Assembly: GCF_003334255.1 (NCBI RefSeq) | Contig: NZ_QOWU01000180.1 | Reading direction: 5' to 3' (one strand) | Source of the DNA: Escherichia coli | GTDB lineage: Bacteria; Pseudomonadota; Gammaproteobacteria; Enterobacterales; Enterobacteriaceae | Length of the DNA: 978 bases | Shown: positions 1-472 of the stretch, piece after piece | How the letters are laid out: every line of letters begins with the position of its first letter | Position numbering within the stretch: position 1 is the stretch's first letter | Program-made: the position numbers and the translations under genes | The notes under the pieces: generated by a model | The model's database searches: none | The model's input: the letters and a program-made list of their open reading frames with translations, nothing else | Told to the model about the DNA's origin: nothing

Positions 1-230
1 TCTGCGTTGCGCAGGCAGGATCTGGCCTCCACGGATTGTCCGGCCCACCATACAGCGGTGGCTGCATTGACGGTTCCACCGTTGCGTTCTGAATCCACCG
101 GGTCGATGAGTTTCTCAAACTGTTTGCCCAGCTTTCCGGTGAACGGGTCGAAAAACACCGCGCCAATCGCGAATATGACTGCGTCCGGTCCGGTACCCAA
201 TGTTTCGGTGTCGATCATGAGATGGTTCAC
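1..230 (-). CDS. Putative DEDD-family (DnaQ-like) 3'-5' exonuclease, N-terminal part; gene continues beyond window position 1
   Basis: Minus-strand frame is open from 230/218 to position 1 (72 codons from the ATG, no stop). Translation from ATG at 218-216: MIDTETLGTGPDAVIFAIGAVFFDPFTGKLGKQFEKLIDPVDSERNGGTVNAATAVWWAGQSVEARSCLRNA. Asp-Thr-Glu at residues 3-5 followed by a hydrophobic stretch matches the Exo I motif of DEDD exonucleases; this is motif recognition only, no search was run. In-frame GTG at 230-228 overlaps the upstream stop (GTGA) and sits 7 nt after GGAGT (plus 238-242); the ATG at 218 is 19 nt from that site, so GTG-230 is the better-supported start. The plus-strand ORF 7..264 on the same DNA has a low-complexity S/P/T/C-rich product and no ribosome-binding site. 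Confidence 0.55.
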   Translation of the reverse strand, partial: MNHLMIDTETLGTGPDAVIFAIGAVFFDPFTGKLGKQFEKLIDPVDSERNGGTVNAATAVWWAGQSVEARSCLRNA

Positions 231-460
231 TGTGTGCACTCCTTCTGTTCGGCGTTGTTCGTGAGCGTTGCAATCAGTCGTTCAATGGATGAGCAGGTTT
301 CCTCCGGGGAGGTGTGCTTCTCTCTCGCTGTGTCAACCAGGTCACGCAGCAATTCGCAGATATGCGCACGCTCGGCTTTTCTTGCGGCCATGCTGATATG
401 TGCATGATGGTTAGCTGGTCTGGCGGCTATTTCTCTGCCGGGTGATTCGGCTGTTCTCAT
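227..460 (-). CDS. Hypothetical small hydrophilic protein, 77 aa, function unknown
   Basis: ATG at 460-458 is preceded by AGGAG (plus 468-472, minus strand) with a 7-nt spacer; TGA stop at 229-227. Product: MRTAESPGREIAARPANHHAHISMAARKAERAHICELLRDLVDTAREKHTSPEETCSSIERLIATLTNNAEQKECTQ, charged and probably helical, with a His-rich N-terminus. The track's 85-aa version (227..484) needs a TTG start at 484 with no ribosome-binding site. I do not recognise the family. Confidence 0.7.
   Translation of the reverse strand: MRTAESPGREIAARPANHHAHISMAARKAERAHICELLRDLVDTAREKHTSPEETCSSIERLIATLTNNAEQKECTQ
238..242 (-). promoter_or_regulatory. Shine-Dalgarno-like GGAGT for the exonuclease-like gene, embedded in the 3' end of the upstream CDS
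   Basis: Minus-strand GAAGGAGT (plus 238-245) lies 7 nt upstream of the in-frame GTG at 230-228. Confidence 0.45.
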
Positions 461-467
461 TTGTTGA

Positions 468-472
468 CTCCT
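468..472 (-). promoter_or_regulatory. Shine-Dalgarno site (AGGAG) for the 77-aa gene
   Basis: Minus-strand AGGAG followed by 7 nt (TCAACAA) and then ATG at 460; an A/U-rich tract (UCUUUUUU) lies immediately upstream. Confidence 0.65.

Follow-up and report, generated by a model that had tools for sequence, protein, structure and literature searches.

Genes and features of the locus

The window analysed here is a stretch of 978 nucleotides from an Escherichia coli genome (NCBI RefSeq assembly GCF_003334255.1, contig NZ_QOWU01000180.1), and its positions 1-472 are taken up by a pair of neighbouring genes from a P2-like prophage (Peduoviridae) of the Enterobacteriaceae, in which they form part of the early lytic operon. 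Both genes are read from the minus strand, a small gene of 77 codons lying just 5' of a predicted exonuclease gene, and their features are the following:

Positions 468..472, minus strand: Shine-Dalgarno sequence AGGAG, 7 nt 5' of the ATG at 460 (read directly)
Positions 227..460, minus strand: coding sequence of the 77-aa protein, with ATG at 460..458, 77 codons and TGA at 229..227 (open reading frame and translation)
Positions 227..230, minus strand: GTGA junction, in which the small-gene TGA (229..227) overlaps the exonuclease GTG (230..228)
Positions 1..230, minus strand: 5' part of the exonuclease gene, 76 codons (230..3), cut by the left edge of the window (translation)
Positions 216..218, minus strand: internal ATG at codon 5 of the exonuclease gene, which is the start of the published EcD construct (MIDTETL...) and probably not the native start
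Positions 204..212, minus strand: Exo I motif D7-T8-E9 (GAC ACC GAA) of the exonuclease (translation and alignment columns)

An earlier note on this DNA had described the small gene at 460..227, its AGGAG site and the overlap of its stop codon with a GTG at 227-230, and the sequence bears out this description in full. The segment CAGGAGTCAACAAATG around the AGGAG is identical in the related prophage locus L001, where RefSeq places a coding sequence at the position equivalent to that of the 77-aa gene, and RefSeq annotates both the small gene and the exonuclease gene in E. coli prophages with 92-95% identity to the window. In the better-sampled comparisons, which are those within Klebsiella, the dN/dS ratio of the small gene is 0.19-0.47, and its product matches PHROG 22206 (E = 4e-46). 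Because of this annotation, the dN/dS values, the PHROG match and the preservation of the junction between them, both open reading frames are taken to be real genes.

The form of that junction varies among relatives, in which the exonuclease start codon is ATG instead of the GTG of the window and the overlap is TAATG (as in L001) or ATGA; in Klebsiella loci the stop and start codons overlap by 1 nt or 4 nt. Overlaps are common in the operon as a whole, at 8 of its 18 same-strand junctions in the coordinates of the L001-type prophage, and a second ATGA overlap lies inside the window at 796-799. Whatever gene comes next, the small-gene stop codon abuts or overlaps it; the overlap with the exonuclease gene is therefore ordinary operon packing and no sign of a partnership between the two proteins, although it may couple the translation of the downstream gene.

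Prophage context and the cassette led by the small gene

Among 5426 complete E. coli genomes, 30 contain P2-like prophages with 92-95% identity to the window, in which the gene order is int, C / Cox, ..., DUF4754, a 41-aa gene, the small gene, the exonuclease, ParE-like, Dam, ..., replication endonuclease A. To follow this neighbourhood more widely, we used IMG/VR loci together with exact-protein look-ups, from which 97 loci with the small gene in 24 non-redundant lineages were compared. The small gene is the first gene of a cassette in every lineage. The position after it is taken by a DexA-like exonuclease, active or dead, by an RNase_T-type exonuclease or by neither; next comes a ParE_like gene or none, and then a Dam methyltransferase, a PP-loop enzyme or none. 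In L007, L008 and L012, genes for Fil or Dhr are found one or two genes 5' of the small gene. A retron paper that mentions P2-like phages and Dam was considered and set aside, as it does not deal with the present cluster.

The contents of this cassette bring to mind partners for the small protein other than the exonuclease. It might act with the DNA-modification gene of the cassette, be it Dam or its replacement, and perhaps regulate the activity or expression of the methyltransferase, since Dam lies 0-2 genes 3' of the small gene in most loci and directly next to it, with an overlap of 4-8 nt, in three independent lineages (L010/L011, L093 and L097). We regard this as quite improbable: Dam is swapped for a PAPS-reductase-like gene of the PP-loop type (SGGKDS) in loci of the L028 type and is missing in L087, L098, L099 and L105 have the exonuclease paired with Dam but lack the small gene, and we know of no precedent for such a partnership and see no structural hint of one.

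Even less probable is that the small protein is an antitoxin-like partner of ParE_like, from which it would have become separated in most lineages by insertion of the exonuclease gene. Most loci have ParE_like (its L001 representative matches PF24732 with E = 1.2e-17), and L008 and L009 show the small gene directly 5' of it with a 4-nt overlap, in the classic antitoxin-toxin order. These two loci represent just 1 of the 24 lineages, however, and at least 12 loci, of the small-exo-dam and small-dam architectures and including L093-L097, have the small gene and no ParE_like. Pfam revealed no RHH, Phd or other antitoxin domain in the small protein, PADLOC gave no significant match for its family, and the toxicity of the 75-aa ParE_like protein is itself putative.

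The exonuclease and its orthology to EcD

The exonuclease frame is opened by the codon at 230, with the in-frame translation (M)NHLMIDTETLG.... Because proteins of different genera share the N-terminus MNH(L/V)M, we take the protein to begin with MNHLMIDTE and not with MIDTE, so that its native start is probably the codon at 230, four codons 5' of the start of the EcD construct. The reading of the N-terminus as MIDTETLG in the earlier note thus has to be extended, while the D-x-E motif of Exo I that it recognised there (D7, E9) stands.

The 76 residues encoded in the window are 100% identical to the first 76 of a 193-aa protein from locus L013, and the features of the full-length exonuclease are read from this orthologue and that of L001, which differ from each other by merely 4 nonsynonymous changes. 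The L001 protein matches Pfam PF16473 end to end (residues 2-183 on positions 1-177 of the 177 in the model, E = 2.9e-51) and PHROG 255, 'exonuclease', with E = 2e-60. Exo II, SFD(114)FP, and Exo III, AH(166)TALGD(171), both of which lie outside the window, are present in the two full-length proteins, and the intact catalytic pentad DEDHD with its H-x4-D spacing places them in the DEDDh subtype. The suggestion from the window that the downstream frame encodes a DEDD 3'-5' exonuclease was therefore correct, and by these motif and profile matches the protein is a DexA/Rv2179c-type DEDDh 3'-5' exonuclease of the PF16473 family.

By sequence, this exonuclease is also an orthologue of EcD, the DexA homologue from E. 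coli that belongs to the 'HREX' defence (Kang et al. 2025, Nucleic Acids Res 53:gkaf501, PMC12153337; GenBank HAK9828821.1). The L001 protein, WP_001537136.1, appears in Table S3 of that paper. The EcD_F primer, ATGATTGACACCGAAAC, aligns at window position 218 with 1 mismatch and is exact in L001 and in L016-L019, and the EcD reverse primer matches with a 1-nt indel; among 177 fetched loci, the two cloning primers match solely this E. coli clade, and their amplicon encodes a protein of 189 aa, MIDTETLG...TPFLNI. The nearest solved structures, found with phmmer at E = 6e-11, are 8KEN and 8KEL, which we recognised as DexA because the aligned chain carries the S87A/D90A substitutions. The phmmer alignment to 8KEN ends at DexA residue 159; in it, A82 of the present protein (A78 in EcD numbering) aligns with DexA D90, and the Trp of the YWNE motif aligns with DexA W152. 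D90 is needed for the DexA tetramer and W152 is the Trp that recognises 5hmC, with D169 of DexA as the second recognition residue (PMC12153337).

Purified EcD by itself digests the 5hmC-modified DNA of the T-even phage T4 and does not cut unmodified dsDNA, and plasmid-borne EcD, with no other gene, protects E. coli from T4, in experiments for which BL21(DE3) was the host strain (PMC12153337). These results show that EcD requires no cofactor and no immunity protein. Digestion of 5hmC-DNA and protection against T4 are thus published for EcD, and we infer them for the allele of the window. Any homologue of the small protein that BL21(DE3) might carry would leave the activity of purified EcD in vitro unaffected.

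The small protein

The earlier note had called the 77-aa protein charged and His-rich. Its 11 basic and 12 acidic residues give a net charge near zero, and the richness in His is not conserved among close relatives, in which H21 and H33 are invariant, H49 is nearly so and no other His is kept. The conserved core of the family consists of ARKxERxH..LLR and TPEE..IE..I. All members of the family are annotated as 'hypothetical', and HMMER, run exhaustively against 1.84 billion representatives, gave just 26 matches, of which the few long ones are repeat proteins that have a 'TPEEI' helix cap in common with the small protein. A tblastn search of 50,697 phage records located the small gene in Klebsiella Peduoviridae only, where it is unnamed everywhere, and a near-identity search of the phage collection gave no match. 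The family is confined to P2-like prophages of Enterobacteriaceae and is uncharacterised.

Comparison with described domains was equally sparse in results. NCBIfam gave zero matches for the 77-aa protein, and the only Pfam match of this protein and 12 family members was YtzH, with E = 0.013. The PADLOC matches of the family, AbiEi (E = 0.0032) and JetC (0.01), come from one member only and were treated as noise. A sequence profile search of the PDB with the 77-aa protein found nothing under E = 3.9, and Foldseek found nothing in the PDB under E = 4.7 for its predicted model.

AlphaFold2 predicts for the 77-aa protein alone (mean pLDDT 74) a disordered tail of residues 1-23 followed by a two-helix hairpin with helices at 24-48 and 52-75. 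At the start of helix 1, after a short strand-like 'xIS' segment, there is a conserved basic patch of R27, K28, R31 and H33. Such a patch, the Rop-like architecture of the hairpin and the place of the gene at the head of the cassette would suit a nucleic-acid-binding regulator of the downstream genes, built as a dimeric four-helix bundle of the kind that Rop forms or as an atypical ribbon-helix-helix protein. We consider a regulator of either kind improbable. The ribbon-helix-helix form was rejected, since helix 1 is about 9 residues longer than the canonical helix A and no RHH model of Pfam is matched, and the near-zero net charge and the empty Foldseek search also speak against a regulator. 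The DNA adjoining the gene also speaks against it, with no conserved RNA structure: the 214-nt gap 5' of the gene has no Rfam match, folds as RNA no better than shuffled sequence (z = 0.14), and contains no minus-strand promoter or terminator that we could find, with window-wide counts of such signals near chance.

Co-occurrence of the small gene and the exonuclease

If the two genes formed a dedicated pair, as the earlier note had proposed in casting the small protein as an accessory subunit, inhibitor or immunity factor, each might be expected to follow the other. Their co-occurrence was named there as a point on which the proposal could fail, and what was found is mixed: the two genes are frequently together inside one phage clade, and their association is obligatory in neither direction. 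By the non-redundant tally of 24 lineages, 19 have the PF16473 exonuclease, 1 has an RNase_T-type enzyme and 4 have no exonuclease, so that the small gene is found without the PF16473 exonuclease in 5 of the 24. With the RNase_T type counted, an exonuclease adjoins the small gene in 90 of 97 loci and 20 of 24 lineages. Elsewhere the small gene is followed directly by ParE_like (L008, L009), by Dam (L010, L011, L093, L097) or, in L094-L096, by the RNase_T-type exonuclease (PF00929), which is non-homologous to the PF16473 one. In the reverse direction, a small-family gene (HMM E < 0.01) was present in 0 of the 80 loci that hold the nearest relatives of the exonuclease, and phage 899 has the exonuclease at another place in its genome and lacks the small gene.

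The sequences of the two proteins also vary out of step. There are 162 pairs of loci in which the small proteins are at least 80% identical and the exonucleases at most 55% identical, and 0 pairs with the reverse pattern; near-identical small proteins adjoin exonucleases that are about 47% identical to each other, both active and dead. The catalytic pentad is kept in 18 of the 85 exonucleases that adjoin a small gene, and the dead homologues beside it show dN/dS values of 0.07-0.09, which denote strong purifying selection. The maintenance of dead exonucleases under such selection would fit a non-catalytic function performed jointly with the small protein. Likewise, the filling of the slot after the small gene by at least two unrelated families of DEDD exonuclease could reflect a functional link instead of chance.

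Theta (HolE), which binds epsilon (DnaQ), the DEDDh proofreading subunit of DNA polymerase III, and Hot of phage P1 are small helical proteins that bind and stabilise a DEDDh exonuclease. In the manner of theta and epsilon, the 77-aa protein might modulate the DexA-like protein or serve it as an adaptor, without being indispensable to it, and might stabilise active and dead versions alike or target them to DNA ends or to another machine. Its adjacency to the exonuclease with a stop/start overlap in 87 of 97 loci and 19 of 24 lineages, the non-homologous exonuclease in the same slot of L094-L096, the purifying selection on the dead homologues, and a size and helical make-up that recall theta are all in keeping with such a role. 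We nevertheless judge it unlikely, though less so than the other alternatives. EcD is active and protective alone, four lineages keep the small gene without an exonuclease, the 80 loci of the reverse search lack it, near-identical small proteins stand beside divergent exonucleases both active and dead, and Pfam gave no match to DNA_pol3_theta or to any other model. The co-folding that had been proposed as a check points the same way: a fused-chain AlphaFold2 model of the two proteins (pTM 0.60) shows no sign of docking, the pLDDT of the hairpin falls from about 88 to about 65 and the tail is still disordered, although this result, obtained with a single linker-joined chain, a shallow alignment of 20 rows and no PAE, is a weak negative only. 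An immunity function against the nuclease was rejected on other grounds, in that EcD spares unmodified DNA and the small gene also stands beside dead exonucleases or none.

A bolder possibility is that the hairpin protein and the DexA-like protein, active or dead, constitute a two-component device for competition between phages, in which the small protein would recruit or regulate a (pseudo)exonuclease that binds DNA ends. A device of this kind would explain why dead copies remain under selection, why unrelated DEDD exonucleases have been captured and why the small gene leads the cassette; we hold it to be improbable all the same.

Interpretation

The reading that we prefer, with a probability of roughly 0.6, is that the locus contains an EcD orthologue and an independent, uncharacterised prophage gene as its neighbour, with no partnership between them. 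The downstream gene would encode an exonuclease of the EcD type that digests the 5hmC-modified DNA of T-even phages and spares unmodified dsDNA. For the small protein, the most likely role would be that of an early accessory factor, independent and non-essential, whose target, a protein or a nucleic acid, might be bound by the conserved basic face with which helix 1 begins (R27, K28, E30, R31, H33). In this it may be comparable to fil and dhr, small genes that modulate the host and are located just 5' of it in related phages. The role of accessory factor is only weakly supported; that of a dedicated partner of the nuclease is unlikely.

The nuclease half of the locus is, accordingly, already known as EcD, a modification-dependent exonuclease against T-even phages, and the present analysis adds to its description in three respects. 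EcD is not a chromosomal 'bacterial' gene: it sits beside Dam in the early lytic operon of P2-like prophages, a location that makes one ask at what stage it is expressed and for whose benefit. The published construct probably begins four codons 3' of the native start. Finally, most relatives of EcD in the Klebsiella clade have lost the catalytic residues and are nevertheless subject to strong purifying selection. On present evidence, a dedicated partner of the nuclease is unlikely, and the 'module' is therefore not one to take further as a candidate defence or anti-defence pair.

Comparison with known systems

The likeness of the locus to epsilon-theta and to Hot is one of outline only, that of a helical protein of about 76 aa encoded beside a DEDDh exonuclease or acting with one. 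There is no sequence similarity to theta or Hot, and DNA_pol3_theta is unmatched at E <= 10 by the window protein and 12 family members; in addition, the 77-aa model has two helices and theta has three, co-occurrence with the exonuclease is not obligate and the fused-chain model shows no sign of docking. The fil and dhr genes of 186/P2-like phages occupy the same operon region as the small gene and encode non-structural proteins of similar size, but the 77-aa family has no homology to them.

T4 DexA (exonuclease A; PDB 8KEL/8KEN) and the other members of PF16473 share the DEDDh fold and motifs with the present exonuclease. DexA differs in its length (227 aa against 193 aa here), in the Asp at D90, which is absent here, and in its genomic context, which here is that of a temperate P2-like phage.

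The closest comparison is with EcD itself. The published construct starts at window position 218, four codons past the conserved native start, and the paper describes EcD as a gene of bacteria with no reference to a prophage, whereas the gene of the window belongs to an early lytic prophage operon; the window gives codons 1-76 of this allele. The two nevertheless belong to the same gene family and the same clade, and orthologues of the window gene have, like EcD, an intact DEDDh site, an Ala at the position of DexA D90 and a Trp at that of W152.

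Gene layout and prophage origin

The minus strand is the sole coding strand of the window, and the earlier note described both of the ORFs considered here accurately: their coordinates, the AGGAG site and the GTGA overlap were all recovered on re-reading.

Features of the small gene and the exonuclease gene in the window
472..468, minus: AGGAG, with a 7-nt spacer to the small-gene ATG
ATG 460, TGA 229..227, minus: small ORF of 77 codons (ORF reading)
230..227, minus: GTGA junction, where the small-gene TGA and exonuclease GTG share bases
GTG start at 230, minus: exonuclease ORF of 76 codons, (M)NHLMIDTETLGTGPDAVIFAIGAVFFDP..., open at the left edge (translation)
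212..204, minus: Exo I D7-x-E9 of the exonuclease (translation)

The D-x-E signature stands as Exo I, but the MIDTETLG start once proposed for the exonuclease gives way to a conserved N-terminus, MNH(L/V)M, that begins earlier. This N-terminus and the overlapping start codon (GTG in the window, ATG in the relatives) indicate that the native start probably lies four codons before the internal ATG at 218.

The remainder of the window holds the C-terminal half of a DUF4754 gene (796-978; PHROG 2549) and, at 674-799 on the minus strand, a gene for a 41-aa single-pass membrane protein (MIIFLSWLILIISVLMAIGIM...) that is hypothetical in RefSeq. A 31-aa hydrophobic ORF (MKNVKAILTIASVWLIFQVCALIWLALKIWE; 566-661, minus) starts 12 nt past the stop of the 41-aa gene, lacks a strong Shine-Dalgarno sequence and falls where the RefSeq relatives carry no annotation. 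It is retained, with conservative substitutions, in loci L001, L013, L014 and L016-L018, has a changed end in L015 and is missing from L019, and its standing as a gene is uncertain.

A search of the phage collection returned no near-identical record of the window. Among 5426 complete E. coli genomes, 30 carry a chromosomal region that matches its full length at 92-95% identity. At the best match (L001), the region is a P2-like prophage inserted beside chpSB and ppa, in which the order runs from the integrase and the C-type repressor, then Cox, through several small genes, DUF4761, DUF4754, the 41-aa gene, the small gene (76 aa), a "3'-5' exonuclease" (193 aa), ParE-like and Dam to the replication endonuclease A, and beyond it to portal, terminase and capsid scaffold genes. 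The full-length reference was L013, an IMG/VR contig whose 77-aa protein is identical to that of the window and whose exonuclease is identical over residues 1-76.

The exonuclease gene corresponds to EcD

The call of a DEDD exonuclease held up in the full-length protein. The 193-aa orthologue matches the whole model of Pfam PF16473 (Rv2179c-like 3'-5' exoribonuclease domain; E = 2.9e-51) and PHROG 255, "exonuclease", and it retains Exo II, SFD(114)FP, and Exo III, H(166)-x4-D(171), which therefore assign it to the DEDDh subtype. By sequence, 8KEN and 8KEL ("Exodeoxyribonuclease", 227 aa) are its closest solved structures, and A87 and A90 of the aligned chain are those of the DexA S87A/D90A mutant of PMC12153337.

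That study (Kang et al. 2025, PMC12153337) described EcD, an E. coli homologue without the tetramer-forming Asp, which leaves unmodified dsDNA uncut, digests 5hmC-modified and T4 DNA and, supplied alone on a plasmid in BL21(DE3), protects E. coli from T4 ("HREX"). Sequence comparison identifies EcD as the exonuclease gene of this prophage clade, the assignment, like Exo II and Exo III, resting on orthologues identical over the 76 residues encoded in the window. The L001 exonuclease (WP_001537136.1) is present in Table S3 of the paper. Primer EcD_F, in its gene-specific part (ATGATTGACACCGAAAC), fits L001 and L016-L019 exactly and the window with one mismatch, and EcD_R matches those genes at their 3' end apart from a 1-nt indel. 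Of 177 fetched loci, only those of this clade match both primers, and the amplicon encodes a 189-aa protein, MIDTETLG...TPFLNI. The published construct thus begins with the internal ATG at window position 218, the "A78" of the paper is native A82, aligned with DexA D90, and the Trp of YWNE aligns with DexA W152. The paper makes no mention of a prophage, yet EcD is part of the early lytic operon in P2-like prophages. In the literature, one half of the proposed module, the nuclease, is thus already characterised, as EcD/HREX.

The small-protein family

Two PHROGs of unknown function match the small protein, PHROG 22206 (E = 4e-46) and, less strongly, PHROG 12723; it has no significant match in Pfam, NCBIfam, PADLOC or the PDB. 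The family is limited in size, with 26 members among 1.84 billion representatives and, when clustered at 90% identity, 483 clusters. All are "hypothetical", and they come from Klebsiella, Raoultella, Escherichia, Citrobacter, Enterobacter, Pluralibacter and Salmonella. AlphaFold2 on the family alignment gave a disordered tail (1-23) and helices at 24-48 and 52-75 (mean pLDDT 74), and Foldseek found nothing with this model. The helix cores are ARKxERxH(L/I)xxLLR and (T/S)PEE(I/T)(Y/C)..(I/L)(E/D)x(W/L)I, and the tail is variable and sometimes missing. In those comparisons with better sampling its dN/dS is 0.19-0.47, which marks the small gene as a real coding gene. In L019 (3743-4231) its frame is open for ~85 more codons upstream, giving a 163-aa ORF, and P0021 is extended at the N-terminus in a similar way; both could represent a fusion to an upstream gene or just an open frame.

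Association of the small gene with the exonuclease

The small gene does overlap the exonuclease start, but the partner module built on that overlap (accessory subunit, inhibitor or immunity factor) is not supported: EcD works alone and needs neither cofactor nor immunity protein. The evidence on co-occurrence is mixed. Within the Klebsiella P2-like phages (Reipivirus, Reginaelenavirus) and E. coli, every small gene directly precedes a DexA-like gene and overlaps it by 1 or 4 nt, but PF16473 is missing in 5 of 24 non-redundant lineages (19 with it, 1 with RNase_T, 4 without an exonuclease; counts drawn from IMG/VR loci and a few exact-protein look-ups). In the reverse direction, the exonucleases of 80 IMG/VR loci, mostly in lambdoid-type contexts, share 46-67% identity with a P2-type one, and none of these loci has a small-family gene (HMM, E < 0.01).

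Divergent small-family genes keep the operon position and overlap whatever follows: ParE_like (L008, L009), Dam (L010/L011, L093, L097) or an unrelated 236-aa PF00929 exonuclease of the RNase_T type (L094 4187-4897, L095 3074-3784, L096 3001-3711), which has VDTET, NAKFDD and HRALYD motifs, an N-terminal extension of ~65 aa and Dam downstream of it, and is a non-orthologous replacement at a fixed position. Since 162 locus pairs combine small proteins at least 80% identical with exonucleases at most 55% identical, and the reverse pattern was never seen, the two genes do not co-diverge. Exonucleases of the active type and of the inactive type both occur beside each of two small-protein clusters (~90% identity within each). 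A single AlphaFold2 chain (small protein-(GGGGS)6-exonuclease, locus-paired alignment) gave a weak negative: pTM 0.60, with the hairpin less confident than in the lone model and the tail still disordered.

A joint function of another kind, non-catalytic, is a minority reading, whose main support is the state of the DexA-like genes beside the small gene. Only 18 of 85 keep the DEDHD pentad of catalytic residues; the remainder (DIKRD, DIKCD, DR-TD, DRSTD, DRDTD, DRVTD, DVKPK) lack the Exo I Glu and Exo III His and, except in DRDTD, the Exo II Asp, so that in Klebsiella-clade P2-like phages most have lost at least three of the five DEDDh residues.

DexA-like genes with lost catalytic residues, outside the window
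L002 5174-5731
L003 3119-3685
L005 4001-4567
L012 4177-4743
also L020, L027, L084 and others

Because their ORFs are intact and their dN/dS is 0.07-0.09 (strong purifying selection), they look like conserved pseudo-exonucleases and not decaying genes.

A variable early cassette

Overlaps of 1-10 nt occur at 8 of 18 same-strand junctions in the L001 operon, and the window has a second one, ATGA at 796-799, between the DUF4754 stop and the ATG of the 41-aa gene. The best reading of the small gene/exonuclease overlap is a compact operon layout, in which translation of the next gene may also be coupled to the small gene. The small gene stands at the head of a variable DNA-metabolism cassette that consists of an exonuclease, ParE_like and either Dam or a PP-loop enzyme, its stop abutting whichever gene follows. 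A PP-loop (SGGKDS) PAPS-reductase-like gene of ~340 aa replaces Dam in some Klebsiella-clade phages, L028, L050, L059, L061 and L065 (about 4972-6018), and L087 has neither. In the P2 relative Escherichia phage 899 (L006 4001-6205), the exonuclease follows replication gene A and precedes a 519-aa hypothetical gene, with no small gene before it; in P2 this position is that of the old/tin variable region, known for its defence genes.

A modulator of the exonuclease, a Dam-linked factor, an antitoxin of ParE_like and a Rop-like or RHH-like regulator are all conceivable roles for the small protein, although each has its own counter-evidence. We favour, with low confidence, an early accessory factor that acts independently and binds protein or nucleic acid, perhaps through the conserved basic start of helix 1 as its putative binding face. 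It would resemble fil and dhr, early accessory genes of the same kind that neighbour the small gene in related phages.
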